This document shows positions 14,794 through 50,676 of a stretch of DNA of 64,000 nt, one piece after another. The notes below the pieces were generated by a model. The model saw nothing but the letters and a program-made list of their open reading frames with translations. It had not been told where the DNA came from and made no database searches. Origin of the DNA: Pseudobdellovibrionaceae bacterium (GTDB lineage Bacteria > Bdellovibrionota > FAC87 > UBA2466 > JACKAF01); assembly GCA_020635235.1 (NCBI GenBank), contig JACKAF010000001.1, positions 178,380-242,379 on the forward strand, read 5' to 3'. The position numbers and the translations under genes are program-made. Positions within the stretch are counted from its first letter, which is position 1; each line of letters opens with the position of its first letter.

Positions 14794-14952
14794 TAACGTT
14801 CCTCTAATGACCGGATAAGTCTCCTGATTATCCCAAGAAACTGTGGGGCAATTATGAAAAGACCTTCAAAGTCCACCCGTTGGACAACTTTTCCCTCATG
14901 CGCAAGACTGAGATAAATAGCCGATATTAGAGGTTTTAATCAAAAACCAGCC

Positions 14953-16455: not shown

Positions 16456-16507
16456 GGGTCCACATTGGGAAAACCCCTAAGAGTGCCGATACAGATTCCG
16501 AAGCCTT

Positions 16508-18790
16508 ATGCGATCCACAGTCTCAAATTGGCGCGGACAACGGTACCTGTCACCGCGTCAGGCCGCAATCATTGCCGCGGTGAGTCTTTTGGCGGTTTTC
16601 TTGATTCTGTCATCTCTTGGGGTGGAAAACGCCGCCTCCAACTTTGATCTTCGTCTCCTTTTTACAACCCGATCGAAATTGGGCAAGAATCCCAATTGGG
16701 ATCCCAAGCTGAAAGTATTCGCCTATGACGATCTAGCCGTCTCACTCCTCCAGAAGAGTGAACCTCCGGCCGGCATTCTTGCGGAAACCCTACGCGCCAT
16801 AAAAGCCCAAAAACCAAAAGCCATATTAATAGACAAGATGTTTAGCTACCGCCTAGAAGGGGATGTGGAAAAGCTCAAGGCCGCGATTGGCGAAGTTCCC
16901 CCCATCTACACAAGCGCATCGTTTTCTGACTCCGCGATTCCCCACCGCAATCCAATTTCCAATGAAGTCCTTATCAACCAGTCGAGCGGGTGGAGAGTCT
17001 CGGAGGCCGATTGGATACCCAACGCGACTTTCGCGTACGGGGCCAATGCAACGTACGGCTCAGCGTTCACAAAGGTAGGCCACCTCAATCTCGCAAAGGC
17101 CGAAAGGATCCAGCCGGTCGTGCGCGTCGGTGAGGCACTGCTCCCACACTGGGCACTTCGCTGGTGGGATCAAGCGGAGCTAAACCCATCGGGCATCACG
17201 AGCTCTTGGGGGCAGATTCCCGTAACTGGTAACGGAACGACTCTAGTTAACCTTGTCCCCTTAGAGGTCTTCGGGAAAAAAGCGCGCTCCATTGCTGCGG
17301 TCTTTTCTAGGATTCAGAAAAACGCGCCCATCGACGAAATCGAAGAGGGCGACATCGTCGCGTTGGTGATGGGTCTTTATTCTGGAAAAGAAACCTATAT
17401 ACGGACAGCGATCGGCTCCCTCCCACGTTCGTACTTGAACATTGCAACTCTGAATAGTGCTTTGTCGGATCAGTGGATCCACGAATTCGATCATCCTATT
17501 CTAGCGAGTCTCGGTGCGGGCGCACTTGCTCTTCTAACAGCTTTCTTTCTTCGGGGATTACTGTTTTGGGCGTCGGCGGGCCTTTTCTCGCTCTTTTGGA
17601 TAGGCTTTGCTCTCAGTTTGTTTGCCTACGGGAGTACTACGCTGCCATTACTTGCTCCAGTAGTTTCGTACGTCCTTTGCGGCGGAACCTACTTCGCGTT
17701 GAACATGGTCGCTGGCGAAAAACGGGTGCGGTCGCTCAAACAATCTCTGGAAGGCCTCGTTGAGCCTGAGAAACTGAAGCAACTCATTCGGAATTCCAAC
17801 GACATCCAATGGCAGCCAAGACTGCAGCAACTCTCCGTGATGTTCGTCGACATTGTAGGGTTCTCGAAAAGCGCTGAGAGAAAAGACCCGAGAGAGGTTT
17901 TTCTAAATCTGCGGAGTTTTCTCGAAAAAGCAAGCCACGTAGTACACGAACACAACGGGATCATCGACAAAACGCTTGGAGACGGACTGCTTGCCTTTTT
18001 TGGGTATGAATTCGATGGGAGCTCTTCAAACGATCACGCTGACAACGCTGTCCAATGTGCGGTAGCCCTACAACAAATGGCGCTTGAATACGCTCTCGAG
18101 TGCGTGGCGGTTAAGGCTCCAGTTTACCCACTTCGAATTGGAATTCATACGGAGGAGGTTTTTATCGGAGATCTGGGCGGAGCCAACCGCGTCGATTTTA
18201 GTATCGTCGGTCAAGGCGTTAATTTTGCTCAACGCTGTGAAGCTGCCTGTGAGTCCTTTCGTGTGATCTTCTCAGACGCCACAAAAAAATCGCTCAAACG
18301 AGGCTTCGATAGTACCTTCAAACTTCACGAGCGGGCGATCCAAATCAAACACCATGACGAGGCCTTTGCCGTTTGGGAGCTCGAACCCTTGGAGGAAAAT
18401 CGAACTCAGGTACAGCAAGTCATTCGACACCACCGACAACAAATTGGTTTAGAGCGCGAAGAATCCCGGTTCACTCTCCGCCAAAGTCTAGAGGCCCACT
18501 TCAAAGCGAATGACATCCAGGCCGAGATCTTAAATTTCTCGCGATCTGGTTTCCTACTTTTTACTTCCGGCTATTTGGGCGTGAAGAGCCGCCTGCAATT
18601 GCGTACGCCCCATCTCCAAAAAATGGGCAATTCCTTTCCCCAGCTCCTGGACGTCGAAATCCGTTGGGGCCAGCCACATCGAGACGGCTACATTCACGGC
18701 GTGCGCATTCTAAACCTAAATGATAACGAGAAGAACGCGCTCTTTGAGACACTCGCCTCCTCAAACCCCTCGCTGGCTGGCGTTGGTTAG
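16508..18790 (+). CDS. CHASE2 sensor, class III adenylate/guanylate cyclase, C-terminal PilZ-like domain (copy 1)
   Basis: N-terminal TM, then a periplasmic CHASE2-like region (KLKVFAYDD...). A TM cluster follows. Cyclase homology domain VMFVDIVGFSK...GDGLLAFFG. C-terminal RHHRQ...NFSRSGF resembles the PilZ RxxxR/DxSxGG pattern. Confidence 0.75.
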   Translation: MRSTVSNWRGQRYLSPRQAAIIAAVSLLAVFLILSSLGVENAASNFDLRLLFTTRSKLGKNPNWDPKLKVFAYDDLAVSLLQKSEPPAGILAETLRAIKAQKPKAILIDKMFSYRLEGDVEKLKAAIGEVPPIYTSASFSDSAIPHRNPISNEVLINQSSGWRVSEADWIPNATFAYGANATYGSAFTKVGHLNLAKAERIQPVVRVGEALLPHWALRWWDQAELNPSGITSSWGQIPVTGNGTTLVNLVPLEVFGKKARSIAAVFSRIQKNAPIDEIEEGDIVALVMGLYSGKETYIRTAIGSLPRSYLNIATLNSALSDQWIHEFDHPILASLGAGALALLTAFFLRGLLFWASAGLFSLFWIGFALSLFAYGSTTLPLLAPVVSYVLCGGTYFALNMVAGEKRVRSLKQSLEGLVEPEKLKQLIRNSNDIQWQPRLQQLSVMFVDIVGFSKSAERKDPREVFLNLRSFLEKASHVVHEHNGIIDKTLGDGLLAFFGYEFDGSSSNDHADNAVQCAVALQQMALEYALECVAVKAPVYPLRIGIHTEEVFIGDLGGANRVDFSIVGQGVNFAQRCEAACESFRVIFSDATKKSLKRGFDSTFKLHERAIQIKHHDEAFAVWELEPLEENRTQVQQVIRHHRQQIGLEREESRFTLRQSLEAHFKANDIQAEILNFSRSGFLLFTSGYLGVKSRLQLRTPHLQKMGNSFPQLLDVEIRWGQPHRDGYIHGVRILNLNDNEKNALFETLASSNPSLAGVG

Positions 18791-18894
18791 CCAACTCCTT
18801 GATGTTACCGCCCTTAGTCTGTCCAAATGCTTTACATTGATTATGAAGAAACAGATTCACTACAATAGTCAGATAGGGATCCCCTATATCGTAG

Positions 18895-19875
18895 ATGAAA
18901 TTAACGCCAGCTTCATTGCGCCACGGCTTCATTTTGCTCGTTCTGTCTGGAATTGCCCTAACGGCAAGCGGCTGCTTTTTCCGGCTTGCGGGAAGCGGCG
19001 AGGACTCGCTGTCCAATTTCCCCCCCATTTCAGAAGATGACTTCACCACCACCAACCCGATCTTCGGAAGCGGAGGCGGGGAAGAGAATGTAGCCTCGAA
19101 ACCTTTTTGCCAGCTTTCCCATTCGGAAAAGTTTGAGGAACCGGGAGCTGAATTCTCGTGCTGGTGGAGCCGCTCGCCGTCTTTGATTGCGCAGCCGCTC
19201 CCCGGGCAGATCGTTGCCGTGTCGGTCTTTGATCGAAAAAATTCTTATTTTTGGAGAGCGGTCGATTTCAAAGTGAATGAAGACTATGTCGAAGGCTCCA
19301 GTGACCCGGCCTTCTATTTTTTGGACAAGACTGATTCGTTCTTCGGCCCCGGAGGCGATCTCATTCCATTTTTCGGAGACCAGATCGAAATTCGGGTCGT
19401 TTTTAGAAGAATTCTCGCACTCCCGCATACCAATATTGCCCTGCCCTTTGACGTAAACGCAGACGGTATCGTGGATGCGGGCGACGTAGCAGCTTTGAAT
19501 GAAGAATTTGAGGTCAATGGGTATCGGCGGATGGACTCAAGTATCACGTCCCCGCCCTCAATATTCGTGGACGTCGATAGAAACCTGTTCTTCAACCACG
19601 ACGATCTAGATCTGCTCAATATGTACCTTTCCCCTCCACACCCGTGGCAAAACCCCCTCAACCGTTTGGACGTAGATAACAACGGCGTGATCGCACCCGT
19701 CGATATCATGCTACTCCAAAACTTGATGACCCAATATGGCCAAGAAATAGATTTGGCGATAGACCCCCCATGGAGAAGCAAGCCAGTCGGCGTTCTTTAT
19801 GCGGATCCCAGCGGGGACAATCGACTGACCCCCCTTGATGTCGAGATGATCATCAATTACCTCAATTCGGACTAA
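18895..19875 (+). CDS. lipoprotein with dockerin-type calcium-binding repeats
   Basis: Lipobox LTASGC. Four dockerin-like repeats (DVNADGIVDAGDVAALNEEF, DVDRNLFFNHDDLDLL, DVDNNGVIAPVDIMLLQNLM, DPSGDNRLTPLDVEMIINYL). Confidence 0.6.
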   Translation: MKLTPASLRHGFILLVLSGIALTASGCFFRLAGSGEDSLSNFPPISEDDFTTTNPIFGSGGGEENVASKPFCQLSHSEKFEEPGAEFSCWWSRSPSLIAQPLPGQIVAVSVFDRKNSYFWRAVDFKVNEDYVEGSSDPAFYFLDKTDSFFGPGGDLIPFFGDQIEIRVVFRRILALPHTNIALPFDVNADGIVDAGDVAALNEEFEVNGYRRMDSSITSPPSIFVDVDRNLFFNHDDLDLLNMYLSPPHPWQNPLNRLDVDNNGVIAPVDIMLLQNLMTQYGQEIDLAIDPPWRSKPVGVLYADPSGDNRLTPLDVEMIINYLNSD

Positions 19876-21496: not shown

Positions 21497-22117
21497 AGCG
21501 TTAGGCCGAGTGCGGGAAACACCGGGCGGTACTCTTCATTCTAGATGAAGCGACAACGCATCTGAAGCAAAACCGGAAAAATCGGACGGCGCTCGGCATT
21601 AGCAGGATAGCCACCTGCGTAATAAAGGGAAGGAAGGAAAGGTGGGTAGGCCGAACACTACGCAACTAATTTTTCTATGAGACTTAGGTGACTGGTATTG
21701 CAGTATTGGATCGCGTATGTGTTCAGCCCTCTTTATTCCCACTGCTTACGGGACAATCTATAGCTATTGTGCGCTTCACCGGGCCCAAGCTCACGTGACA
21801 AGGGTGGCGAGAAAAGGAGGCCACGCTGAGCCCAGTTTGTCGGAAACGTATTCAGTCTGTGTACAGAGCTTGGTCAGCTGGGGAGATAGCTGTATTCATT
21901 AGCTAAATGGATTTTTCCCGGACGAGTGTCGAGCTTCATAGGCCCTCAGGCACGATGGGGGTTGCCATATAATACCAATATAATCAAGTGCTTATTGACT
22001 GCCGGGATGGCCCGGGCCTTGCAATTTGTAGAGGCTGTCTGGCTGCTTTCACCTTTGACCTTCATCCCTGTCCCACTTCATTGAATCTTCCAAGCAAAGC
22101 AAAGTCGAAGGGTTCTA

Positions 22118-29422: not shown

Positions 29423-32400
29423 TTACTTGCTGATACGTACGTACGCGTTGTTACAGGAGTTTGCGTCAAATAACGAACTCCCCTTCGTCATGTCGGTCAT
29501 GATGCGGGGCATGAGTTCTACAACGATATCAGAATGGATCTGACCTTCCTGGATGACCCCCTTTACAACGTCTTCCAGATCCCCCGGCTGCAGGTACTTG
29601 AAAAAGTCACCGAGCGCGATGACCCCTTTCTGCACGCGGATCAGGTAATCTGATGCCCCACCTTTTTCTGTTTTTTCCTGAATGAGTTTAAACAGGTAGT
29701 CCCCAAAGGCGTGATCCCCGGTACCGAGTTCGGATTTGAAGCTTTTTACCCCCTCATAGAGGACATCCGCGAGTACTTTTCTATCTTCTGTCGTTGGCAG
29801 CTGATCGTCGGTTGCCATTGCACCGAAATCAAACAAGTAGATCTTGTTTCCGTCTATTTTGAGCTGCGCACCGTGGCGATCGTGATCGAATTTCTCGCCT
29901 CTCAGTATCCGTGAAATCTCAAGCGCCACATAAGCGCGCGCGATGTCGCGCTTGCGTGCTTTTTGCTTGGCGGTTCTTTCGGGGAGATCGTTAAAATGCA
30001 CGCCTTTAGCCTGCTCCATCACGCGGTAACCCTCTCCGCTCTCCAGTGTGCGGGCCACGTGTATCTCGAAGGGTTTGCCATCGCCCACTTTAATCGTGGC
30101 GCCGTGATAAAGGCGCTCAGCGTCCTCGGCTTGCTTTTTCCCGATTTGCCAATCGGTTTCAATATCAGCCATCCGTTCGGCTTGCTCGATCATGGAAACA
30201 AGGACCTTAAAGGCGGAGTTCTTTTCGGCCTGCTTTTGCGCCATCTTCTTCATGACTTCAAAACCAGTCTTGGCGCGCTTCTTCGCATGCGGACGAAGGA
30301 GAGAAATCACGCGGCTTTCTAGTACGACGCCGCCATTGGGCCGCACGGTCTCTAGTTCTACTTCGTAGGTGACATAGTAGGACGCAGCGCCAAGTATCCG
30401 TTTGACGCGTTTAATGCGCTTTTTGAGAGAAGCGGGAATGACATCTCCATGCAGCTTAAAGAGATCCCAACGCGTTAGCACGTCCGCTTCGCTCTTGAGG
30501 CGGCCCATCCCATCACGGATTTCATGTGGGGTGTGCGGACTACTGTGCAGGACTTGTCCCAACTTTGTTTCGGCGGGTCCCATGCGTTCTAGAATAAGCG
30601 CCAGACGTTCTCCAATGGTGGTCTTAAAGCGAGACTGCTCCGTATTTTGCGCCGCCGCCATAAGCGCTGCGATCACAAGGCTGCGTTGGTACTTGGGGAT
30701 CTCCTCGATGTAGAGTCGCACCAGATCGTGCGCCTCTTTTGAGTACTTTTCACCCGTTGGGAAAACCTTGTTTAGGATTCTCTCGGCAGCCTTTTCAAAT
30801 TCACCGTCACTTCGCCTGTCTCCGGGAAGAATAAGTTCATCAATGATCCCGACCCGAAGCTCCATGTCGGACGCCCAGAAGTTTTGGTGAATCTCGCGGG
30901 CCAGACGCTGGTAACCCTCATCGGTTGAAATGGCTTGACCATCGGTGAGGAGCTGTTGCTCAAGACTTAGGGCGTGGCCAAAATCCGAAAGAGAACGCGC
31001 GGTCATCGGGCGCGTGAGAAAATCGACTAGTTCGTCGCGAAATTGATGGTTGGCTCGCACCAAGCGCAGGGAGAGGTTAAGCCCCATCATTTTTAGGTCG
31101 GTCTCGACACCTTGCCCCCTTCGCGCTTCTCCTAGCTTCAAACTGAGATCTTCTTGCGATTCCACTTCGTTGGCGAGGTGGTTGAATAGTTCGTGCCGGT
31201 CTTGGGCATAGAGGTGTGTCCCGGCGCGATCAGCTTCTGCGAGGATAGTTTCGGTGTAGATAGAATCGCCTGCATCCTTACCGAATCGCTCACGCGCGGA
31301 TTGCGCCCAGAGTTTAAGCATGCGGGTTCGCAGTTTTGGGTCTTGTACTCGTGGGCCTCTAAAGATGCGCTCAATGGCGCCTTGGCGAAGCGCTGGCGAG
31401 CTGTATTCGGAAAGCCGATCCAGAATGTCTTTGATAAGTTTGTAGCGCAGCACCCCGTCCTCCGGGAAAAGCCTCGCCTTGTCAAAGAGGGTAAACTCGT
31501 TGAGTAGTGGCCGTGCGCTTTTTGGCCAGTCTTTGCGGTTTTTTACGTAGTTCGAAAACCTTTTTTCTAAGCTTGTGGTTTTCTCTCGCCATTCGCTATG
31601 CAGATATGGAAGCACGCGTTTTGGATCCAGGTTTTCTTTGGGGTGGTTGACCTGAAAGACTTCTGCTTCCATCGCCGCCAGCCCGGCGAGGAAGTTTCCG
31701 GGACGGGATCCCAGACTTTCCAGTAGCTTGTAGAGCTCCTCGGCCGTTTGTGGTTGCTCGTAACCCAACTGCCTCCTAACGGTCGTGAGATAGAGATTGG
31801 CTGTATCTTGCCGGACATCGGGCATACCGCTAGGGGCGAGCGGCGGCACGAGGGCTGAGGTAAATCCAAGCACATGGACTTTGTCCTGACGCGAGGGAAA
31901 TAGGCCGTGAGGGTCTTCGAGCGCAAAGCTTACTAGCGGGTGGGCAAGCGGCAGACCGTCAAAACCGTGCTCGCCATAAGAGGCCCCCGCTCTGCCCGCG
32001 ATATCGGGGAAGGCGCCTTTCATATAAAACTCGCGGACGATGGGTTTCCATTTGTCCGGATCTTCTCGGATGAGTTCGGAGAGCTTTTTTATGAGTTGCC
32101 CGGCGGGCGCACCCGAGCGTGCCGGGATATCAGACAGGATCGGCATATTGACCCGCATAAAAAGATCAAAATCTTTATCTATGGATTCGAGTCCGATGAG
32201 GCCGTCTGATTTTCCCATTGAGGAAGCGCTCGCAGTAGCTAAAATGTCGTGGGCTTCCGTATCGCCGTGAATCGCTCGCTGAAAGAGTTCCGGTACATAC
32301 TCTCCGAAGAGTTCGCGGCGTAACTCTTCAGCTTTTCCCGAGCCCGGCTTTCGCAGCCCGACCGCTTCACCGTCGGCGCCAATAACCAAACGATCCATGG

Positions 32401-33919
32401 TGCGATCGTCCCGACGAGGGCCTTCGTTCACCGATTTGCAGCGTCCCAGCATACAGAGCGCTTTGTCGTTAAGATCCATCAGCTGATAGACGCGCGGCTC
32501 TTTCACTCCGAGATGATAGAGCGCCAAGCTTAGGTGTTTGGAATCGTCCCCCACGCCCTGCGACCAAACGATGGCCCGTTCCCATTCCACGGTTTCGCCC
32601 TTTCGGGGAAAACGAAAGGTTGGGATGTAAAGATCCTGTAGAAAGGCGGCATCAATCTTTCCGTCTTTGATGGCCTTATTCAGGCCGATGGCGGCTTCCA
32701 CTGCGGCTTTTCTGTAAGAGTCTGCGGTGCGGGTATCCCCTTCGTCCGAGGCTTCGGTGGCTTTTCTCACTGCCTCCACAAAATCATAAGCATAGACGAA
32801 GATTGGCTCTGCATCTCCCAGAGCGGTGTCGGATTTGTGGTAGCGCTGCGCGAGAGCGGTGTAGAGTCTTTGGCGTGGGCCCGTGAGTCCAAGTTTTTCA
32901 TCTGGGTCACGTGTTGGCAGATGCAAGATGAGATTTGCGGCCTTGCTGAGTTCCACCCAACGCGGATCATCGTCCATTTCGATGCTTTCCAGGGAGGGGA
33001 TCGTTCCAATCGCTGCGCTAAGGTCCTCGGTGCGCGCATCGTGACCGGAAAGAATGTGGGGCATCTGCGCCTGGACAAATTTCAGTTTCTCTACAGCGTC
33101 CAGAGTGGAGAACTTGGCCTTTTCCATTTCCTTATCTAAAAAAGATACGTGCTTGCTACTGCCGGCCGCGGCAATCTTGGGATCCACAGGAGTGCTGGCA
33201 ATCTTTTCCCCGGCGTCCGTTTCCTCAAGCTTTCCTTTTTTGAAACGTAAATGCCCTAACCCTTTCTCCACCATCGAGCGGCGCGTGGGGAGGTCCCACG
33301 CAAATATTGAGCGATCTCCAAATCCGAACTTCGATCGGGGTTCATTTTCAAGAGCGTCCTGTACGCTTAGCGCGGCCGTAGCGTCGAAATGGCGTTCATG
33401 GAGGACTTCCAAAGCGCGCGTGACCCCGAGAGCGTCATCTGCCATACCGGTTCGGGCTTGTGGCTCGGAATCGATCTGGTTCGAAATGACTTCGGTCGCG
33501 AGCAAGTAGGCGAGCTCATCTTGTGTCTTTACCGTCCGCACGGTTTGCGTGGTGAAGCCAATGAAGTTGTGTCCGTCGGTAACGAAGCTTTTGTGCCCGA
33601 GACGATCGCTATCCATCAGGAAAAAATGAACGGGGTGCTTTTTTAGGTCGTGATTGGGAAAGAGCCGCTTAAAGAGCTCTTGCATTTCGATGTCGAAGTC
33701 GCGCGCCACGGGGGATTGGAGATCCACCACACGGTGATTTTCCTGAAGGCGTTGAGACATCTCGCCACGCGCAAGCGCTTTGTCTTCATCGTCCGTAGGA
33801 TCTGCGTGCAGGGCAAAACTGAAGGCAAAAAACAGAAAAAATAGAATTTTAGCTAGGGACTTGATCCCGGCCTCCTCGTGCGTAATCCGTCGCTTGTTGT
33901 TATGCAAGGAGACGGCCAA
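29423..33919 (-). CDS. giant signal-anchored protein: degenerate M48-like peptidase segment plus C-terminal ABC1/UbiB-type atypical kinase domain
   Basis: 1498 aa. Hydrophobic N-terminal segment ILFFLFFAFSFALHA. N-terminal region FFLMDSDRLGHKSFVTDGHNFIGFTTQ...DELAYLLATEVIS resembles the M48 core, but HExxH is replaced by TEVIS. C-terminal LERMGPAETKLGQVLHSSPHTPHEIRDGM ... FDHDRHGAQLKIDG ... LFDFGAM match ABC1 kinase motifs. Confidence 0.65.
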   Translation of the reverse strand: MAVSLHNNKRRITHEEAGIKSLAKILFFLFFAFSFALHADPTDDEDKALARGEMSQRLQENHRVVDLQSPVARDFDIEMQELFKRLFPNHDLKKHPVHFFLMDSDRLGHKSFVTDGHNFIGFTTQTVRTVKTQDELAYLLATEVISNQIDSEPQARTGMADDALGVTRALEVLHERHFDATAALSVQDALENEPRSKFGFGDRSIFAWDLPTRRSMVEKGLGHLRFKKGKLEETDAGEKIASTPVDPKIAAAGSSKHVSFLDKEMEKAKFSTLDAVEKLKFVQAQMPHILSGHDARTEDLSAAIGTIPSLESIEMDDDPRWVELSKAANLILHLPTRDPDEKLGLTGPRQRLYTALAQRYHKSDTALGDAEPIFVYAYDFVEAVRKATEASDEGDTRTADSYRKAAVEAAIGLNKAIKDGKIDAAFLQDLYIPTFRFPRKGETVEWERAIVWSQGVGDDSKHLSLALYHLGVKEPRVYQLMDLNDKALCMLGRCKSVNEGPRRDDRTMDRLVIGADGEAVGLRKPGSGKAEELRRELFGEYVPELFQRAIHGDTEAHDILATASASSMGKSDGLIGLESIDKDFDLFMRVNMPILSDIPARSGAPAGQLIKKLSELIREDPDKWKPIVREFYMKGAFPDIAGRAGASYGEHGFDGLPLAHPLVSFALEDPHGLFPSRQDKVHVLGFTSALVPPLAPSGMPDVRQDTANLYLTTVRRQLGYEQPQTAEELYKLLESLGSRPGNFLAGLAAMEAEVFQVNHPKENLDPKRVLPYLHSEWREKTTSLEKRFSNYVKNRKDWPKSARPLLNEFTLFDKARLFPEDGVLRYKLIKDILDRLSEYSSPALRQGAIERIFRGPRVQDPKLRTRMLKLWAQSARERFGKDAGDSIYTETILAEADRAGTHLYAQDRHELFNHLANEVESQEDLSLKLGEARRGQGVETDLKMMGLNLSLRLVRANHQFRDELVDFLTRPMTARSLSDFGHALSLEQQLLTDGQAISTDEGYQRLAREIHQNFWASDMELRVGIIDELILPGDRRSDGEFEKAAERILNKVFPTGEKYSKEAHDLVRLYIEEIPKYQRSLVIAALMAAAQNTEQSRFKTTIGERLALILERMGPAETKLGQVLHSSPHTPHEIRDGMGRLKSEADVLTRWDLFKLHGDVIPASLKKRIKRVKRILGAASYYVTYEVELETVRPNGGVVLESRVISLLRPHAKKRAKTGFEVMKKMAQKQAEKNSAFKVLVSMIEQAERMADIETDWQIGKKQAEDAERLYHGATIKVGDGKPFEIHVARTLESGEGYRVMEQAKGVHFNDLPERTAKQKARKRDIARAYVALEISRILRGEKFDHDRHGAQLKIDGNKIYLFDFGAMATDDQLPTTEDRKVLADVLYEGVKSFKSELGTGDHAFGDYLFKLIQEKTEKGGASDYLIRVQKGVIALGDFFKYLQPGDLEDVVKGVIQEGQIHSDIVVELMPRIMTDMTKGSSLFDANSCNNAYVRISK

Positions 33920-34105
33920 TTCTTGTCCGTCATTTCAACTGGTTAGCAGCCTGTAAACTAGCTGAGTTCGTAGTAGATCTAAGCACCAGTCTGGGTCTTG
34001 ATATAAGGTGAAAGCGAGGAGCTGCATTCTAGAAGTGTGCTCCCGAGGAGAGCGAAAGATTCGACCCCGAAGGGAACGAATCACAAAACCGTCAGCCAGT
34101 GAAAC

Positions 34106-34231
34106 TGGCGGAGAGAGAGAGATTCGACCCCGAAGGGAACGAATCACAAAACCGTCAGCCAGTGAAACTGGCGGAGAGAGAGAGATTCGACCCCGAAGGG
34201 AACGAATCACAAAACCGTCAGCCAGTGAAAC
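34106..34231. repeat. two perfect tandem 63-bp repeats, each starting with a copy of the 22-nt 3' end (with CCA) of the adjacent tRNA-Ser; a degenerate third copy lies at 34043-34105
   Basis: Unit is TGGCGGAGAGAGAGAGATTCGA plus CCCCGAAGGGAACGAATCACAAAACCGTCAGCCAGTGAAAC. Copies start at 34106 and 34169. The tRNA itself starts at 34232. The degenerate copy matches 17 of 22 nt. Confidence 0.85.
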
Positions 34232-34319
34232 TGGCGGAGAGAGAGAGATTCGAACTCTCGATAGGTTTCCCTATACACGCGTTCCAGGCGTGCGCCTTCA
34301 ACCACTCGGCCATCTCTCC
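34232..34319 (-). tRNA. tRNA-Ser (anticodon GGA), type II with long variable arm
   Basis: Reverse complement GGAGAGATGGCCGAGTGGTTGAAGGCGCACGCCTGGAACGCGTGTATAGGGAAACCTATCGAGAGTTCGAATCTCTCTCTCTCCGCCA folds as a cloverleaf. 7-bp acceptor stem, anticodon loop CTGGAAC, T-loop TTCGAAT, encoded CCA. Confidence 0.85.
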
Positions 34320-34590
34320 TTAGGCGATTTGGAAACTGACAAGAGTAACGAGATAACACGGTTTCACACACGCGTCTACGCCAGAAAAGTAGCCTAATCT
34401 TAGCTGTTTAGAGCGTTCTGGGCGCAGTTGCCAGGAATGAGGGACCTGCCCCCCAACACGGCTCCCGGACAGAATTCCAGCCCCAACAGGATCCCGTCCA
34501 GCAGGCATACGATCTAGGCGTATTCCGACAGAATTCCTGGCCCCCTCGGGCTCACACCGTGGCCTTAGCTTTGCATTTTCGCTCCTTAGT

Positions 34591-36030
34591 ATGGCTGGGG
34601 GTCACAAACTACTATTCTTTTTTCTTTTGCTTGCGCGCGCCGTAATGGCCGACACTCTTTCACCACCCGCCACCCCCCTTGATTGCCGTGCGGCGCTCCA
34701 AGAAATCGGCCTTACTCCCGATGAAGCCTCCGCGCTCATGAACGAGGCGTCCCCGTCCTCTCTTCGCCACATCATCGAGAACCACTACCGAACTCCGTCG
34801 AGCCTGGAGGACTCTTTGCGTAAGCACGTCGCGGGTGACCGAGCCCTTTCCGATTCCGCGGTAGCCGCCTTGGAGAAAGCCGGCTATCGGGTAATCCGCA
34901 AACTCGGGCAAGGCGCTTTTGGCACCGCACACCTTATTGAAAAAAACGGAAAGCGCTTTGTCGTAAAAGAGGGGCACTCACCAGAGTCCCTGATCCGAGA
35001 GGCTGAGGCCATCTCCGCATTGCCCCAAATTCCACCGCAGTTTTTCTACTTCCCGTCAGTGTGGTACCCAACCGCCACTGAATTTCCGTACCAGCGCGGC
35101 GGCAATAAAGATAACTTGCTCATCGCGGCCCTTTTCGAAAAGTGCCCCGGCTGTCACGAGCCAGCTCCCGCGCTTAGCCAACGTATTAAAGAGCAGTTCT
35201 TGGATCCTCAAGAAAATCCGGTACGGTACCAGCACTTCGTACGGAGCCTACTGGATAGCGTCGCTGTTCTCCATACTTCAGGCCGTATCATCCACCGCGA
35301 TATTAAACCCGAAAACATTCTGGTGGACGACTCGGGAAACGTGGGGGTCATCGACTACGGAATGGCCATCGACGGCGCCGCCTTCGGACCAACCACCCTC
35401 TCGGGCACGCTGAAATACGTCTCGCCAAGTGCGCTAAGGGGAAACCCTCCCTCTCCCCTTGATGATATCCACGCGCTACGGATCACTTTGCGCAGCGTTC
35501 GCCAATCGACCGATCCTAATGCTGCGCCACTCATCAATGTTTCGACTGATTATGGCGTCTTGCCGCTTCACAGCCACGCGGCTGAACTCCCAGGTAAACC
35601 GGACAGAGTTGCAATGCTTGAATGGAGCCGAGTGTTTGACTCCGTTACTGAGTGGCAAGCAGCGTTGGACAAGCGGGCGATTCCGGATCGTGAGTTTGAC
35701 CCTTGGTACGGCCAACGGTTGACGACTCAGGATGATTCAACAATCGCACTCGAAATGCTCAGTTCCCTCTATTCTATCGAACGCTTCCGATCCAACGGTG
35801 GGTACCAGATTGAAAATGAGCGGTTAAAAGAAATAATCGTTGAAGTTATTCGCCTCGATGGCGCTTTAGGGAACCAGCCCGCGCTCCTTCTGGAACGGGG
35901 CTTCCTGACTAGAGACGCACACTTTGAGGAATTCTACGATCAAGTAGAAACACTCTACCAACACGGAGAAATACCCCACTACCTACTACGCATGGCGCGG
36001 GAATCGCGCACCCGCCGCGCAGGCCCCTAG
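34591..36030 (+). CDS. eukaryotic-like Ser/Thr protein kinase with N-terminal signal peptide
   Basis: Signal-like MAGGHKLLFFFLLLARAVMA. Gly-rich loop LGQGAFGTAHL with VVKEG lysine. Catalytic loop HRDIKPENILVD. DYG(MA) variant of DFG. Confidence 0.75.
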   Translation: MAGGHKLLFFFLLLARAVMADTLSPPATPLDCRAALQEIGLTPDEASALMNEASPSSLRHIIENHYRTPSSLEDSLRKHVAGDRALSDSAVAALEKAGYRVIRKLGQGAFGTAHLIEKNGKRFVVKEGHSPESLIREAEAISALPQIPPQFFYFPSVWYPTATEFPYQRGGNKDNLLIAALFEKCPGCHEPAPALSQRIKEQFLDPQENPVRYQHFVRSLLDSVAVLHTSGRIIHRDIKPENILVDDSGNVGVIDYGMAIDGAAFGPTTLSGTLKYVSPSALRGNPPSPLDDIHALRITLRSVRQSTDPNAAPLINVSTDYGVLPLHSHAAELPGKPDRVAMLEWSRVFDSVTEWQAALDKRAIPDREFDPWYGQRLTTQDDSTIALEMLSSLYSIERFRSNGGYQIENERLKEIIVEVIRLDGALGNQPALLLERGFLTRDAHFEEFYDQVETLYQHGEIPHYLLRMARESRTRRAGP

Positions 36031-36051: not shown

Positions 36052-36873
36052 TCAGCTAGTTAGATTCAACCCTTCGCTCAGCACTTGTATCCCGTGCGCA
36101 AAAAGCGGAATACCCGCCTCAAGCGCCTCCTGCTCGAGCTGCCGCCGACGGGCACGAAGACTTTGGCGAGACGCCTTTTCTACGCCGTTGGCCTTGGCCC
36201 ACTCCTCCAGCACTGCCAGATCGTGGGCCGTACCGAGAAGTTTACCGAGCGCCTCGACGGCCTCAAGCCTCCTGGCGGCAAACTCCATATCCCGAAGCAA
36301 CTTCAAATGAAAGCCGTGGTACTTCACGCGCTTCCGCCACACGTGAAATTTCAGTGCAGAGGGCTTCGCCTCCGCCTCCCGCCCACAGCGCTCCGCGCGC
36401 CGATACGTCTTCAAGAAACCAGGAGCAAACCCAGCGGCCTCTAAAAACTTCCACTTACCGCAACGCGCCTGCCCAAGCAGCAATCTCTGCCGGACCTCTT
36501 TGAGTACCTTTTCAATCTCCAATTCCGTCGCTTGCTCGGCCCTTAACTTCTCCAACCACAAATTTGCCTCTGGCTGAGACTCGCCCCATTTTGCCGCGGT
36601 TAGCTGCAAAATTTCGCCGTCCCGATACCGCGACAACAATCTACCGGTATCGCGGTACCACCTGTTCTCCTTGCGATAGGTTTTTACAGGCAAGCTGGCG
36701 CGAAAAAGTCGCAAACTCGCGCGAATCCTTTTCAAACTTCTCCGAATACTGTGCACTCGTTCAGCGAGTGACTTCCCTTCGGTGGTGTTTACTAGCGACT
36801 CGGTGAGCTCCTCACGGATCACGCGAGCTAGTTCCTGATTGGCGGGCGCATAGAGGTCGATCTTAAAGGCCAT
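36052..36873 (-). CDS. CHAD domain-containing protein
   Basis: Conserved His-containing helices VHSIRRSLKRIRASLRLFR, FHVWRKRVKYHGFHLKLL and LGTAHDLAVL match the CHAD pattern. Confidence 0.65.
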   Translation of the reverse strand: MAFKIDLYAPANQELARVIREELTESLVNTTEGKSLAERVHSIRRSLKRIRASLRLFRASLPVKTYRKENRWYRDTGRLLSRYRDGEILQLTAAKWGESQPEANLWLEKLRAEQATELEIEKVLKEVRQRLLLGQARCGKWKFLEAAGFAPGFLKTYRRAERCGREAEAKPSALKFHVWRKRVKYHGFHLKLLRDMEFAARRLEAVEALGKLLGTAHDLAVLEEWAKANGVEKASRQSLRARRRQLEQEALEAGIPLFAHGIQVLSEGLNLTS

Positions 36874-44055: not shown

Positions 44056-47000
44056 TTGTTCCAAAAAAGCTTACAAATTCTCAAATCCCTCTCCTTTGTA
44101 TGTCTGATTATGGCCAGCCCTGCCTGCCTTAAGCTCAACGATAGCGGTGCGAGCTCAGGCGGCGACGGCGAAGACTTGGCGAGTATTCCCACCTCTGGCA
44201 CGGGCCGCAATGCGACCGTTATCGCCACGGCGACGAACAGTTTGGCCCGGTGTAGTTTCACCCAAATGGGTCTCGTGGAATTTTCCCTAGAGTGCGCGGT
44301 CGTAGTCGTCCAGAACAATCAGGAGTTGGTAGCCAACGAAGCTGAAAATGTTGAGTTCAACTGGGGTACGCCCAGTCGCGTTTCCGGCGCGGAAATTCTC
44401 ACTTCGACCTGCGAATCCGGTTACAAGAACTTGAGCCACAATTGCGATCTCGTATTAGACGAGCCCCGAACGACTGAAGTCGAAGTCGGCTTGTTGCGAA
44501 CAAACACCGTAACGACAGAAGCGGATGAGTTATCCGCACTCGTTTTGCTCGCCTATTCAGTTTCTTCCTATGGCTTGGTTCCGCAAATACCGATCGCGTT
44601 CAACCCTGGCCCGCGCGGACTGCTCGGTTTGAGCGGCAAAGACCGATCGGAAATGGGCTTCGCCACCCGAAGTTTTGTGGCGGACAACATCTCAGTCGAT
44701 GAGATCAAGTCGCAGTGCTGGGACGGCACCCACAAGATCTCTACTGAAGGCTACATCTATTCCCGAAACGCCACTACCGGACGAGCGGAAATCTTCGCGG
44801 GTACCGCGAACACGCTAAACACTTTGGATTATCCGAACACCGAACACCGCCTGCGCGTTCACTTTGAGCCGGGAGATCTCTTCCTGGCGTGTAGTCCCGC
44901 CAAACCCAATCTCCTCTATGTTCTAGTCCGTCAAAAGGGTGTCGACCCCAACGGCTATTACGTTCCGGATGCGCTCCTAAAGATATATAAAATAGAGAAC
45001 GACATGGTTTCGGTGGTCGTTCGCGCTAATCCCGGCGAAGGCGAGTACAACTGGTTAACGCCCCCCCTTGTCGAGGCCGCGGTGAACGCCAACCTCGATT
45101 CTTTAGGCGGCGGTGCCGTTGGCGACGATGGTGCACTTTATTTTTCCGAACCCGGACGCGGTATCGTGCGAAAGCTGGACGCCGACGGTGGCAACATCCA
45201 CCTTTACGCCGGCGCTGGCCCTTGTGCCACCTACAATCCGGATCCTGATGAAAATGGAAACGATCAAAACCCTCCGTGGTGCACGTTTACCGGAAATGGT
45301 TATCTCGATGGCCCCATCAGCCAATCTTTGCTCAGCTCGCCCAAGGGCTTGGCTTATCACAACGGCAAACTCTACATTGCCGATGAAATGAATCGCCGGA
45401 TCCGTGTCGCGGAAAATGGAATGGTTTCGACATTCGCTGGCGGTGGCACTCAAACCACTGACGGTGCGAGCCCGTTGGCCGCGCAGTTGGGTTACCTTCA
45501 AGATGTCAGTGTTGACTCTGCCGGTACTATTTATATTGCCGACTCCGATGTGAACCGGATCAAGAAGATTGAAAATAACCAGGTCATAACGATTGTTGGC
45601 TCAGGCGACGAAGGAAACCCTTCGCACGGAGACAGCGCTCTTTCGGCTGCCGTCTTTCATCCCTTTTCAGTGGTGTCGGGTAGCCCTTCACAGGTTTATT
45701 TTGCTTTTCAGTTGTTTGAACAAGTCTCGCCGGCTCCAAACGGGAGGCGAGTTTTTGGTTTGAATGAAAGCAACGAGCTCAAAGTTGTTTTTGGCGAGGC
45801 CACCATAGATTTGAATTTGAGCCCAGATACCCGCTTTGCGCAGTTAAGAGAAGCGTCTGGCATCGCCTTTCACCCGAATGGAGACATTTACTACACGGAC
45901 GCCCAGAACCATCTCGTCATGCGGATTCACAAAGGAAGTAGAGGACAGGACGTCGTCAGTCGATTTGCGGGCATTGGGCTAAGTGGCTGCACGAATGTTC
46001 TCGGTGGCAATCCGGCTACCCTAGTATTGAATGAACCGACCGGTATCGCCATTACCGAAAACGGTGATATTTTTGTGAGCGACACAGGAAACCATCGTAT
46101 CCTCAAATTCCACGAAGGTTTGTTTGTGTACAACATCTCTCGGGCGACTGGACTAAATTGTAATGAGAGTCCGTTTGCTCCATACTACAATGGCTATAAC
46201 GAGCCCCTGTACGACGAAGAAGGAAATGAAATTCCGCAACCTCCAGCGGTTTGCGGCATCTACACGCCGTACCCGACAGCCATGACGGCAGACCCCTCTG
46301 GCAACGTCTTTGCTATCTTGGGCGCTTCCCAGGAAATCGTAAAAATCCCTGCTGAAGGCGCCCCTCGCTACTACGTAGGTGGGTGCGATTCCATTGCAAC
46401 TCTCCCCACGCGTGAAAAGCTCATCGGAATTACTTCCGACGGTGATGGAAACATTTACGTTTCGGACGCCGAGACTTCAAAAATCCACCGAATTGGAAGC
46501 GATAACGTCGGCGTCACCATCGCCGGTACCGGAACGCGTGGAAGTGCAGGCGACGGAGGCCCGGCTCTCAGCGCTCAATTTGAGTACCCCGCCGCACTGG
46601 CGTACGACAATGATCGCCTTTATGTTGCAGACGGCGGAAGCGCCATCGTGCGCATGCACATGGCTGATGGTGCGGCCAATCCCGACTTCAGCGATATCCC
46701 ACCGGGGTATGACATATCTTCTGGAAGCACGCGGATCCGTGTGATCGAAACTCAACAAGATACAACGCTTCGCGTTAGTTTGCTTGTGGGTGGCCGCCTG
46801 AATAACACTTGCGGAACAGGTACTGTCCAGGGTTCCAGTGAATCCTCAAACCTATTCGATCAATTGAGTGCCAGTTTGTCCAACTACTGCCGCGCACGCA
46901 TCCGAGCGCTTGCCGGCAAAAACACGTGCGACGCAGAGCAGAACCAGACTTCGCTCGTTTTCGCGCAAAGCTTTTCTTCCGTCTACGAGAACGAAATCCT

Positions 47001-47064
47001 CGAAGCCTTCTCCCGTAACGCGCCGTCCTCAAACGTCATCAAGGTGGATCGACAGTGCTTTTAA
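44056..47064 (+). CDS. giant NHL-repeat secreted lipoprotein (copy 2) with Cys-rich C-terminal domain
   Basis: 1002 aa. Signal peptide with ASPAC. NHL repeats (YIADSDVNRIKKI, FVSDTGNHRILKF, YVSDAETSKIHRI). C-terminal region aligns with copy 1 and ends ...KVDRQCF. Confidence 0.7.
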   Translation: MFQKSLQILKSLSFVCLIMASPACLKLNDSGASSGGDGEDLASIPTSGTGRNATVIATATNSLARCSFTQMGLVEFSLECAVVVVQNNQELVANEAENVEFNWGTPSRVSGAEILTSTCESGYKNLSHNCDLVLDEPRTTEVEVGLLRTNTVTTEADELSALVLLAYSVSSYGLVPQIPIAFNPGPRGLLGLSGKDRSEMGFATRSFVADNISVDEIKSQCWDGTHKISTEGYIYSRNATTGRAEIFAGTANTLNTLDYPNTEHRLRVHFEPGDLFLACSPAKPNLLYVLVRQKGVDPNGYYVPDALLKIYKIENDMVSVVVRANPGEGEYNWLTPPLVEAAVNANLDSLGGGAVGDDGALYFSEPGRGIVRKLDADGGNIHLYAGAGPCATYNPDPDENGNDQNPPWCTFTGNGYLDGPISQSLLSSPKGLAYHNGKLYIADEMNRRIRVAENGMVSTFAGGGTQTTDGASPLAAQLGYLQDVSVDSAGTIYIADSDVNRIKKIENNQVITIVGSGDEGNPSHGDSALSAAVFHPFSVVSGSPSQVYFAFQLFEQVSPAPNGRRVFGLNESNELKVVFGEATIDLNLSPDTRFAQLREASGIAFHPNGDIYYTDAQNHLVMRIHKGSRGQDVVSRFAGIGLSGCTNVLGGNPATLVLNEPTGIAITENGDIFVSDTGNHRILKFHEGLFVYNISRATGLNCNESPFAPYYNGYNEPLYDEEGNEIPQPPAVCGIYTPYPTAMTADPSGNVFAILGASQEIVKIPAEGAPRYYVGGCDSIATLPTREKLIGITSDGDGNIYVSDAETSKIHRIGSDNVGVTIAGTGTRGSAGDGGPALSAQFEYPAALAYDNDRLYVADGGSAIVRMHMADGAANPDFSDIPPGYDISSGSTRIRVIETQQDTTLRVSLLVGGRLNNTCGTGTVQGSSESSNLFDQLSASLSNYCRARIRALAGKNTCDAEQNQTSLVFAQSFSSVYENEILEAFSRNAPSSNVIKVDRQCF

Positions 47065-47111
47065 GCGCTGGCCGTTGAGTACCGATAAGATCCTGAAACA
47101 ACTTAATTTTA

Positions 47112-49454
47112 GTGAATAAGACAAAGTCATTTTGGAACCGCTTTGCCCCCCGGGACATTTCCTTGCAGCGGGGGCTTGTGATCGTAGCAGTCTGCACGGC
47201 GGCGTTTTCAGGTTTGTACTCCTCACAATGGGGAGAGCGCATCGAACGACGAGCCGCACATCCTATCGCGTTTCAGATCCGGCATTTGCTCGGCATGGAT
47301 CCGAAGATCGATCCGCGCCTTAAGGTGTACGCCTTTGATGACTCCACACTTAAGTACGTCGACGAAGAGGATCTCACCCTCAAGCAGTGGGCCGACACGT
47401 TGGAAAGTTTCATAAAGGCGAATCCGAAGGCAGTGATTATTCCGAAATTGTTTGGGACTCCGAGCGGCCGAGAGTATGCAAAACATTTCGAGAAAAGAAT
47501 TCAGCAACTCCCGTTCCCCGTCATCACCGCGGCTGTGTTGACTCACGACGCTTCCCGGGCACCCCTAAGAATGGAGCAAGATTTTTCAGACCTGGAAAGC
47601 CTAGCGGCGGCTGGAAAATTTCAGGAAACTCTACAATCGCTGACGCTTCCCAAAGCAAGCGATCTGAATCCCATAGGACCTCACCCAACTATTGAAAAAG
47701 CCTTCTCACACGTTGGCCATATCAATTACTATGACGATTTCTTCTTTGAAACTTTTGTCCGAGTTAATGAAAAAAAAGCTCTGCCTGCGGCGCCTCTGCT
47801 GCTGGCAGACACTCTATATTTTGACGACGGGGATCTTTATGCGGACGGAACAGAAATACCGACCGACAGCCGTGGTCGAGTTCTCATTAACATGGGAGAC
47901 CCCTCAAAGTACTACGAGCGGATCTACGCGCTGAAAAGCGTGATCAAAAGAGCGTCCCAAGGAGAGCAGGTCACCACATTACCGGATAACTCCGTGGTAC
48001 TTCTCCTTTTTATGTTTTCGCCAAACGTAGACATGACACAGTCGCCTTTTGGTCCCATCCCTGAGGGCCTGGTTTTAAACGCATTCGTCAATAGCGTCCT
48101 GACAAAACAGTGGGTTCGCTTTTTGCCTATGGGTGTTTTCTGGGTGGCGGTTTTCTGTTTAATCGGTGGCGCTCTAGGGCTGTACTTTCAAGGAAGTCAG
48201 TTTTGGATCACGCTGGCGGCAGGGACCTTTTCCATTTTCGTTGCCGGCTGCGCGGCCTTTTCCTATGGGTCTATCCATACTCCATGGTTTTTCTCCGGTC
48301 TGGGACTCTTGACCACCGGGGCGACGGTATTTCTAGAAAAGTATCGGCTAATCGACAAAAAAACTCGTCGTGTTCGGGCTGCATTGGACGGCTTGGTTCC
48401 TCAGCGACAACTTCTCGAAATAATCAAACAACCCCTTGCAGAATTAACCAAACCCTCAGAACACGTCACTACAATCATGTTTATCGACGTGATCGGTTTT
48501 TACCTAACGGCTGAGACGCAAGCACCGGCAAACGTTTTCCTCTCACTGAAAGACCTGCTTTCCCGCTTAACAAACACCATTCATAGTTTTGATGGAATCG
48601 TCGACAAAACCACTGGAGACGGGATGCTGTGCTTTTTTGGTTATGACTACGTAACCGGAAAAGTAGATCCAGAGCACGCCAATAAAGCGCTGGCCTGCGC
48701 TATCGAGATCCAGCGAACAAGCCTGGAACTCAATCTAAAGGCGCACGAAAATCACAAAGCCCTCTTCCCCTTGCGCATCGGACTCAATACGGGGAACGTT
48801 TTTATCGGTGATTTGGGGAACTCTCAGCGAATGGATTTCACCATCATCGGTCATGCTATTAATTTTGCGAAAAGGCTTGAAAGCGCCTGCGAAGACTACT
48901 GCGTAATGTTAGGCGCCTCCACTTATGACTTGATTTCCCTGGAGCCCGAGGGAGTGGGAATCAAGAAGAAGATGTTGCAGATCAAGCACTACCAGGAACT
49001 GATTGAAGGGTACGAAGTAGATCCACTGGCCCAACTGCAGGAACAACGGCAGGCCGCACTGAGCGCCTACTGGAACTTCGCACACAAGGCTCAGCACAGT
49101 CCACGCTGGGAAGTACCAGAGAGCGTCCGAATAGAGGCCATCACAAAAACCCACGGCAAAGGTCGAGTCGTTAATTTTTCCTTAGGTGGAATGGCAATCG
49201 AACTGGATCAGTACCTCGCCCGCGGAGTAATTCTCGAGTTTCATATCGAATCCCAATCACCAGAACTAATCGAACAGCTAAAGAAGATCGGACTGCCTTC
49301 TTTGGTGGGAGAAATCCGCTGGGGGCGTCCCAAGAGCAACGGATTATACCTGCATGGGGTCGCGCTGCAAAATCTTACGGAAGATCAATCTAAGGAAATC
49401 CAACGTATTCTCCGCTCGACGGTGACCTCCACAACGCTCCGAAAAACGGGCTAA
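47112..49454 (+). CDS. CHASE2 sensor, class III adenylate/guanylate cyclase, C-terminal PilZ-like domain (copy 2)
   Basis: GTG start. Same architecture as 16508-18790 (RLKVYAFDD..., IMFIDVIGF...GDGMLCFFG). C-terminal VNFSLGGMAIE is a canonical PilZ DxSxGG-type motif. Confidence 0.75.
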   Translation: MNKTKSFWNRFAPRDISLQRGLVIVAVCTAAFSGLYSSQWGERIERRAAHPIAFQIRHLLGMDPKIDPRLKVYAFDDSTLKYVDEEDLTLKQWADTLESFIKANPKAVIIPKLFGTPSGREYAKHFEKRIQQLPFPVITAAVLTHDASRAPLRMEQDFSDLESLAAAGKFQETLQSLTLPKASDLNPIGPHPTIEKAFSHVGHINYYDDFFFETFVRVNEKKALPAAPLLLADTLYFDDGDLYADGTEIPTDSRGRVLINMGDPSKYYERIYALKSVIKRASQGEQVTTLPDNSVVLLLFMFSPNVDMTQSPFGPIPEGLVLNAFVNSVLTKQWVRFLPMGVFWVAVFCLIGGALGLYFQGSQFWITLAAGTFSIFVAGCAAFSYGSIHTPWFFSGLGLLTTGATVFLEKYRLIDKKTRRVRAALDGLVPQRQLLEIIKQPLAELTKPSEHVTTIMFIDVIGFYLTAETQAPANVFLSLKDLLSRLTNTIHSFDGIVDKTTGDGMLCFFGYDYVTGKVDPEHANKALACAIEIQRTSLELNLKAHENHKALFPLRIGLNTGNVFIGDLGNSQRMDFTIIGHAINFAKRLESACEDYCVMLGASTYDLISLEPEGVGIKKKMLQIKHYQELIEGYEVDPLAQLQEQRQAALSAYWNFAHKAQHSPRWEVPESVRIEAITKTHGKGRVVNFSLGGMAIELDQYLARGVILEFHIESQSPELIEQLKKIGLPSLVGEIRWGRPKSNGLYLHGVALQNLTEDQSKEIQRILRSTVTSTTLRKTG

Positions 49455-50464: not shown

Positions 50465-50676
50465 TCAAAACCTCCATGGCGGGCCCCATCTAGGCCCCGC
50501 ATTCAGTTTCCGGTTTTTTGAAGTTTCTTTGCAGCGCAAAGGGTGCAAGTTGCCGTTGCTGTCATTGCAAGGCGCCTTGTGGCACCGTCACACCAATTTG
50601 GAACCAAGTTTCTCTGTCTCGGAGGCACGAAAATTCTGGCATCACGATTGCAATCTCATTGGCTTGGAGGGGCACC

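Follow-up and report, generated by a model that had tools for sequence, protein, structure and literature searches.

A Pseudobdellovibrionaceae Hanks-type kinase with a predicted Sec-type signal peptide, from a rare accessory family

We analysed a 64,000-nucleotide stretch of contig JACKAF010000001.1 (assembly GCA_020635235.1, positions 178,380 to 242,379 of the forward strand), hereafter the window, which belongs to a metagenome-assembled genome (MAG) of the Pseudobdellovibrionaceae. The gene at 34591..36030 on the plus strand is complete (ATG start, TAG stop at 36028-36030) and encodes a kinase of 479 amino acids (aa), identical to NCBI entry MCB9253222.1. With a probability of roughly 60%, we read it as an exported, active Hanks kinase of a rare accessory family, which would act outside the cytoplasm of its producer and likely on prey. 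The eight full-length members of this family share one layout, in which a predicted signal peptide is followed by a conserved cysteine, a kinase domain without the APE glutamate, and an orphan C-terminal helical region.

The kinase domain and its orphan C-terminus

The protein at 34591-36030 belongs to the Hanks-type superfamily by motifs, Pfam and fold. The original prediction, made from the letters of the window, had named it so from its motifs, and the translation, Pfam and the alignment all confirm this. The kinase domain occupies aa ~97-380 (34879..35730, plus strand), as delimited by motifs, Pfam, alignment, an AlphaFold2 (AF2) model and Foldseek. In the translation we find the glycine loop GQGAFG (aa 106-111; 34906-34923), the beta-3 lysine K126 (34966-34968) within RFVVKEG, the alpha-C glutamate E137 (34999-35001), a CPGC hinge (aa 185-188; 35143-35154), the catalytic loop HRDIKPEN (aa 235-242; 35293-35316) and DYG (aa 255-257; 35353-35361), the last of which is DFG in the six distant family members. 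The alignment further reveals SPS in place of APE (35422-35430) and the alpha-F segment DDIHALR (35461-35481), all on the plus strand.

Aligning the window kinase with 35 generic kinases, we find K126, E137, R236, D237, K239, N242 and D255 to be invariant. The catalytic residues are likewise all invariant in the alignment of the eight family sequences, which shows, in addition, the family-specific invariants DD291-292, R297, W345, L377, F399, F448 and L455. Pfam Pkinase (PF00069) scores 69.9 bits against a cut-off of 31.7, the aligned part being aa 212-303 only, and a phmmer search of the PDB matched Aurora A and about 1,300 other kinases. Judged by its intact catalytic motifs, the protein is apparently catalytically competent.

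The AF2 model built from the eight-sequence alignment (predicted local distance difference test (pLDDT) 72.5; predicted template-modelling score (pTM) 0.71) shows a standard bilobal kinase at aa ~97-380, with a low-confidence helical leader before it and a helical extension of ~100 aa after it. The best Foldseek matches in the PDB were PknA, PknB, PKA and CaMKII (E 2e-8 to 1e-7, TM-score up to 0.66). No effector kinase was among these PDB matches, and a viral Foldseek library was matched by generic kinases alone. The C-terminal extension (aa 381-479; 35731..36027, plus strand) is family-specific as judged from the alignment, the model and null searches. Residues 291-479, comprising the divergent alpha-F to alpha-I region and the extension, had no sequence match in Pfam or the PDB; modelled alone (pLDDT 75.5), they had no Foldseek match either (best E 0.66).

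The APE glutamate is the one canonical residue that the window kinase lacks. In generic kinases Glu makes up at least 90% of this column, whereas the window kinase has S280, and all eight family members have replaced the glutamate (SPS, SPN, SEN, SDN, SKN, SPG or GEG). The APE glutamate anchors the protein-substrate lobe, and its loss in every member, together with the divergent alpha-G to alpha-I region, would suit an exported small-molecule or lipid/glycan kinase of the APH-, Kdo- or WaaP-like type, modifying an antibiotic, a lipid, or a component of the cell wall or lipopolysaccharide. NCBI names the protein a 'phosphotransferase', the Pfam APH profile (PF01636) scores 27.1 bits against a cut-off of 23.2, and faint Kdo/WaaP-family matches occur on the distant members P0258 and P0160. 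However, the APH match is confined to the catalytic loop (profile positions 153-197, 45 of 239), and the Pkinase score is far higher. The catalytic loop has the HRDxKPxN form, and its lysine is the one usually seen in protein kinases of the Ser/Thr class. The activation segment is kept at full length, including a P+1 loop that reads GT..Y.SP, and the best structural matches are protein kinases. On balance, a small-molecule substrate seems improbable to us.

N-terminal signal, start codon and conserved cysteine

The predicted Sec-type signal peptide covers aa 1-20 (34591..34650, plus strand) and is made up of MAGGHK, LLFFFLLLA and RAVMA, with cleavage predicted before D21 (V at -3, A at -1). 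This agrees with the usual build of a signal peptidase I substrate: positive charge in the n-region, an h-region of 7-15 residues, small residues at -3 and -1, and ~18-30 aa overall. It is the sole hydrophobic segment of the protein, and its uncharged core of 9 residues is bounded by K6 and R16. A leader of 76 aa then leads up to beta-1 (aa 21-96; 34651..34878, plus strand); it varies among family members, is rich in Pro and is modelled at low confidence. The original prediction had seen this N-terminus as a signal-like hydrophobic segment with a leader of roughly 80 aa, and both are found here.

Re-deriving the N-termini from the locus DNA, we find the signal pattern, a positive n-region and a hydrophobic core of 9-17 residues, in all eight full-length members. 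Seven of them have a small residue at -1, while the cleavage register of P0160 is ambiguous. The pattern is kept across the family at 23-60% identity, although the N-terminal sequence itself is not. Signals were called by a hydropathy-type heuristic backed by conservation. As a control, the heuristic flagged 10 of 11 window proteins expected to be exported (an outer-membrane-protein barrel, a TolC-like protein, M16 peptidases and lipoproteins) and none of seven cytoplasmic ones. Among 333 unrelated Hanks kinases it flagged 12, and the two of these without a later transmembrane-like segment are both longer than 3,000 aa. From the predicted signal and its family-wide conservation, we infer that the kinase is exported.

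Public annotations disagree on the start codon. MCB0417595.1 begins the identical protein at M19 (461 aa, without the signal), while MCB9253222.1 begins it at M1 (479 aa). The ortholog P0002 (60% identity; Bdellovibrionales MAG HKST-UBA01) has a GTG at the nucleotide position aligned to the window ATG, and its N-terminus reads MARGKKLVLFLFALTRLLCA, followed by DS, with a cysteine in place of M19. Thus M1 is favoured, and M19 is ruled out as the true start. A longer open reading frame is also ruled out: the frame is open from 34441 and holds no ATG, GTG or TTG upstream of M1, and the conservation there falls into DNA blocks, which are separated by a completely diverged stretch and have no pattern resembling that of codons. 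Two distant members raise the same issue. For P0160 the gene caller took an internal Met, and the extended frame encodes MRDMMWRAQLLLLLLSLHAVMPALA, followed by AP. For P0139 the frame upstream of the called Met encodes IVRRALVCLALLTFSLGLRA, followed by DN (locus L008, ~700-760), with no ATG, GTG or TTG in range, which points to either a non-canonical start or an assembly error. Mis-called start codons in public annotations thus conceal the signal peptide of family kinases.

The choice of start bears on whether the protein stays in the cytoplasm, either as an anti-phage kinase of the PD-T4-6/mad6 type or as an ordinary signalling kinase, its N-terminus being a membrane-association helix or a start-codon artefact. 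The annotation that begins at M19 drops the hydrophobic segment, no Shine-Dalgarno sequence precedes M1, the PADLOC profiles mad6 and PD-T4-6 score 66.7 and up to 61.8 bits, and a patchy accessory distribution also suits defence genes. Nevertheless, the PADLOC matches are confined to the generic core at aa ~214-300 and do not exceed Pfam Pkinase in score. In the ortholog M19 is absent but the hydrophobic N-terminus is kept, and the segment is present in all eight members despite 23-28% identity. Defence genes are absent next to the kinase, and its neighbours have no PADLOC matches. A defence kinase was rejected, its matches being limited to the catalytic core and its context being no defence island, and we give hardly any credence to a cytoplasmic kinase of either kind.

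An anchor in the membrane was weighed in two forms. The original prediction had named as its own refutation a conventional membrane kinase, encoded by a core gene of the lineage and anchored by a transmembrane N-terminus, and this alternative fails. The 9-residue core is too short to span a membrane, and the order of signal then kinase is the reverse of that in PknB-type receptors. No other hydrophobic segment follows; therefore, the protein is not a conventional membrane receptor kinase. The second form is an uncleaved signal-anchor of type II topology, which would tether the protein to the inner membrane with its kinase domain in the periplasm. P0127, P0155 and P0258 have hydrophobic cores of 15-17 residues, which could just span the membrane, but the window kinase and its ortholog offer only the 9 uncharged residues between K6 and R16. 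Moreover, seven of the eight members have A or G at -1 and continue with polar or Pro-rich residues, which is the pattern of signals that are cleaved. The kinase would still lie outside the cytoplasm, which leaves the problem of its ATP supply (see below) unchanged. We consider such a tether to have a slim chance only.

The leader contains a cysteine, Cys32 (34684-34686, plus strand), in the motif C-x-x-[AD]-[FLYW]-x-x-[IVL]. All eight members conserve it at 5-23 residues beyond the point of predicted cleavage, and four of them have no other cysteine in ~460 mature residues. Such a lone conserved cysteine is typical of a functional extracytoplasmic cysteine, and it could form a disulfide-linked dimer or serve as a redox switch. 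A lipoprotein was ruled out, as no lipobox [LVI][ASTVI][GAS]C is present; the residues before the cysteine are PLD, TLE, GKI, PDP, DDA, DKG, VFL or SSA. A CxxC in the hinge (CPGC in the window kinase) is present in the window subfamily and in P0139.

Distribution, upstream elements and neighbourhood of the gene

Performing a word-index search of 5.8 billion clusters, we found P0001 and P0002 as the only close relatives; the rest were generic kinases at E 3e-11 or worse. An exhaustive HMMER profile search of 1.84 billion representatives yielded at least six distant members of 450-511 aa, a lower bound taken from the best 150 matches. These six align as one stretch over query residues ~85-400, with 23-28% identity to the window kinase. 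So far, the family consists of at least eight clusters with eight full-length members, including the 60% ortholog and the six distant relatives. Among 185,579 GTDB species genomes there is one related locus, that of HKST-UBA01, and the JGI metagenomes contained no relatives when searched by single protein or by subgroup alignment. The literature search found no described Hanks kinase with a Sec signal in Bdellovibrionota or other predators. Judged by these searches, the family is rare and previously undescribed.

The window species is represented by four assemblies, in which the neighbours of the kinase gene are identical. Outside this species we found no synteny around family members. The ortholog P0002 has an SdpI-like gene on one side and unrelated genes on the other. 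Tandem pairs of family kinases with an ATGA stop/start overlap occur in two independent lineages (L003/L004 and L006/L007; L003 2-2754 and L006 402-3295), which suggests that they are co-translated partners; P0127 and P0160 form one such pair. The distant member P0150 is flanked by transposases: at its locus (L005), on a contig of 772 kb, an IS110-family (8438-9424) and an ISL3-family transposase (18440-19726) bracket P0150 together with a Fringe-like glycosyltransferase, and the bracketed region looks like an island. The original prediction had asked whether orthologs are patchy or core. With its rare and non-syntenic occurrence, sometimes tandemly duplicated and sometimes flanked by insertion sequences, the gene is, on this comparative evidence, accessory.

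We also examined the DNA upstream of the kinase. A sigma54-like -24/-12 element, TGGCCTTAGCTTTGCA, lies at 34560..34575 (plus strand), where its GC precedes the ATG by 17 nt. The ortholog locus of HKST-UBA01 keeps this element (TGGCCTCGGCGTTGCA; L001 ~751-766), and a near-consensus TGGCAC-N5-TTGCT stands 62 nt upstream of P0150 (L005 ~9925-9940). The criteria were GG at -24, GC at -12 and a 10-bp spacing (TGGC-N7-TTGC), directed toward the gene. The pattern TGGC-N7-TTGCA occurs four times in the window against 0.69 expected, the further matches being at 33903-33918 (minus), 22008-22023 (plus) and 50637-50652 (plus). Three of the four lie just upstream of genes for exported proteins, namely the kinase, a giant ABC1-domain protein described below, and an FG-GAP lipoprotein at 22118. 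The element at 17 nt from the kinase ATG would leave an mRNA leader of only ~5 nt, and neither an rpoN nor a Sigma54_activat gene is present in the 64-kb window. The gene is probably transcribed from a sigma54-type promoter in the window lineage, and the set of elements suggests a possible sigma54 regulon of secreted proteins. Further upstream, the block GCATACGATCTAGGCGTATTCCGACAGAATTC at 34505..34543 (plus strand), with the near-palindrome GCATAC-N9-GTATTC, is conserved in the ortholog locus. One copy of a direct repeat, GACAGAATTCC, overlaps this block, and the other lies at 34468-34484. The block is a candidate regulator-binding site.

A tRNA-Ser(GGA) gene (34232..34319, minus strand) stands separate from the kinase unit and has the kinase on its 5' side. 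On its 3' side, toward the ABC1 gene, we find a 63-bp tandem array (34047..34253; 3.3 copies, 98% identity), whose unit is the last 21 nt of the tRNA plus 42 nt downstream that hold a hairpin-like GATTCG...CGAATC. Logan assemblies of the window species break at this array, with contigs L010 and L011 ending 301 nt upstream of the kinase. The original prediction placed the kinase beside a tRNA-Ser hotspot, and an island integrated there was accordingly considered. This link was given up: the array is local and lies on the other side of the tRNA, the window holds no distal att copy and no integrase, the GC content is normal, and no compositional anomaly was seen.

The divergent neighbour (29423..33919, minus strand) encodes a protein of 1498 aa that begins with a signal-like segment and carries an ABC1/UbiB-like domain at its C-terminus, and the sigma54-like element at 33903-33918 belongs to it. 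It had been counted with the kinase as a small cluster of kinases. The two are alike in the element TGGCC-N6-TTGCA and in the signal-like N-terminus. The giant stands next to the kinase in the window species only (L012) and is absent beside every other family member, so the cluster is unsupported beyond that species, and a functional pair was rejected for want of co-occurrence outside that species. The listed NCBI start of the ABC1 gene, a TTG, overlaps its own sigma54-like promoter (33868-33919, minus strand). Translation from an in-frame ATC at 33868-33866, which a strong GAGGAGG precedes by 5 nt, would yield MKSLAKILFFLFFAFSFALHA, followed by DP, and hence a clean signal peptide. This non-canonical ATC codon is probably where the gene truly starts.

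On the other side of the kinase, a CHAD-domain (polyphosphate-associated) protein is encoded convergently (36052-36873, minus strand), 21 nt from the kinase stop. It is kept next to the kinase within the window species only, and a functional link is unsupported. Elsewhere, the window carries two paralogous modules (11389-18790 and 44056-49454), in each of which an NHL-repeat protein of ~1000-1100 aa lies near an adenylate/guanylate cyclase of ~770 aa with a C-terminal PilZ fusion. One of the cyclase-PilZ proteins also has a CHASE2 sensor; the cyclase-PilZ fusion is an unusual architecture.

Site of action and relation to known kinases

For lack of ATP in the periplasm, bacterial Hanks kinases are regarded as enzymes of the cytoplasm. 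On our reading, the kinase would be synthesised as a precursor whose Sec-type signal peptide can be cleaved, its entire kinase domain would leave the producer's cytoplasm, and protein targets would be phosphorylated outside that cytoplasm, where ATP is present. Since the periplasm lacks ATP, such an exported kinase would need a special ATP source. NCBI taxonomy places Bdellovibrio in the Pseudobdellovibrionaceae, and for a member of this family an ATP-containing site would be an invaded or permeabilised prey cell, that is, the bdelloplast or the prey cytoplasm. Action in the prey cell is thus the most economical route to function in a relative of a periplasm-invading predator. The analysis itself shows the kinase motifs and fold, the signal-like segment with its conservation in the family, the lack of further membrane segments, and the rarity and missing synteny of the gene. 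Export with cleavage, kinase activity, the substrates and the site of action, whether periplasm, bdelloplast or prey, are what we infer here.

Several points weigh against this reading. The periplasm is considered free of ATP, and the bacterial Pkinase domains surveyed were uniformly predicted to be cytoplasmic (PMC11032199), which together make the architecture unusual. That the producer is a predator is an assumption drawn from the taxonomy that NCBI gives for a MAG. Cultured Bdellovibrio lacks the family, which therefore cannot serve a core predation function, and the GC content at the loci of the six distant members spans 50 to 67%. Genes for a secretion system, a PP2C phosphatase or a sigma54 activator are absent from the 64-kb window, and no target gene is linked in it. 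Without the APE glutamate, and with its divergent C-lobe, the kinase might bind protein substrates differently or no longer at all. As for the signal, its assignment rests on a heuristic and conservation, the 9-residue h-region is at the short end for signal peptides, and an Arg conserved at -5 is unusual for a c-region. The original prediction had named host- or prey-directed effectors or periplasmic sensors as typical of exported Hanks kinases. Export has gained in strength as a reading, while an effector role is only putative, with neither a secretion system nor a chaperone nor a target tied to the kinase.

The same signal-peptide evidence would also fit a kinase that remains in the periplasm, soluble or disulfide-linked through Cys32, and phosphorylates the envelope proteins of its own producer, perhaps only when feeding supplies ATP. 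No second-step secretion signal is recognisable, and the helical C-terminus matches no Pfam domain, T9SS C-terminal domain (CTD) or other sorting domain. The lone conserved cysteine and the translationally coupled pairs suggest a stable extracytoplasmic complex, and stress and envelope genes lie nearby (MscS, an extracytoplasmic function (ECF) sigma factor with NrsF, and MsrAB). However, the absence of ATP from the periplasm (PMC11032199) stands in its way, no neighbour is conserved beside other family members, and an envelope-regulatory kinase would be expected to be wider in the lineage than eight clusters. We regard a periplasmic resident as unlikely, and prefer an exported kinase that acts on prey. 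A fuller version of the latter, which we put forward only tentatively, is a Sec-exported active Hanks family that would phosphorylate prey or bdelloplast proteins with ATP released from the prey, its activity or assembly controlled by the lone cysteine through disulfide homo- or heterodimers from coupled pairs, as a bacterial counterpart of eukaryotic secreted kinases.

We compared the window kinase with known systems. It resembles the receptor kinases PknB, Stk1 and PknA in catalytic fold and motifs, its best Foldseek matches being 4x3f (PknA) and 3oro (PknB) (E ~2e-8, TM-score 0.62-0.66). Its best NCBIfam match, PknB_PASTA_kin (NF033483), reaches 51.8 bits against a cut-off of 450. PknB-type receptors have an N-terminal cytoplasmic kinase, one transmembrane helix, and extracellular PASTA or other sensor domains. 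In the window kinase, by contrast, a signal precedes the kinase, no later transmembrane segment or PASTA domain follows, the APE glutamate is lost and the C-terminus is an orphan.

Effector kinases are closer in their way of life. Legionella LegK1-4/7, Coxiella CstK, Yersinia YpkA/YopO, Salmonella SteC and H. pylori CtkA are Hanks-type or related kinases, which, like the kinase proposed here, are encoded by patchy accessory genes and act outside the producer on another cell's proteins. Kinases known to act outside the bacterial cell are injected into eukaryotic hosts by type III (T3SS) or type IV secretion systems (T4SS); these effector kinases, targeting eukaryotic hosts, use T3SS, T4SS or unknown routes and are not known to carry an N-terminal Sec signal. 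CstK of Coxiella is a translocated effector kinase (10.1101/611707). The NCBIfam profile for LegK1 (NF043056), an effector of the Dot/Icm T4SS, gives the window kinase 33.4 bits against a cut-off of 550, and the lack of a secretion system in the window is a further difference.

The order of signal peptide then kinase fold is found in Toxoplasma ROP, Plasmodium FIKK and Fam20C/VLK kinases, which work topologically outside the cytosol or in another cell and whose gene families expand by duplication, as does the window family. Unlike it, these eukaryotic secreted kinases take an ER/Golgi route with imported ATP. They have no specific kinship to it beyond the generic core, and the likeness is an analogy only. 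The anti-phage kinases PD-T4-6, mad6 and Stk2-like are also single-gene accessory Hanks kinases, whose PADLOC profiles match the catalytic core. In contrast to the window kinase, they are cytoplasmic and without a signal peptide; the match covers ~85 core residues, with no common accessory domains or defence neighbourhood. In summary, the window kinase is a member of the Hanks superfamily and not of the PASTA-kinase, LegK or defence-kinase families.

In the literature searched, we found neither extracytoplasmic phosphorylation by such kinases nor a kinase weapon against prey. The protein is compact and testable, with ~460 mature residues, one conserved cysteine and an orphan C-terminal domain. 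If our reading is true, such a family, in a lineage whose members feed within other bacteria, would mean extracytoplasmic protein phosphorylation in bacteria, or a kinase weapon against bacterial prey.

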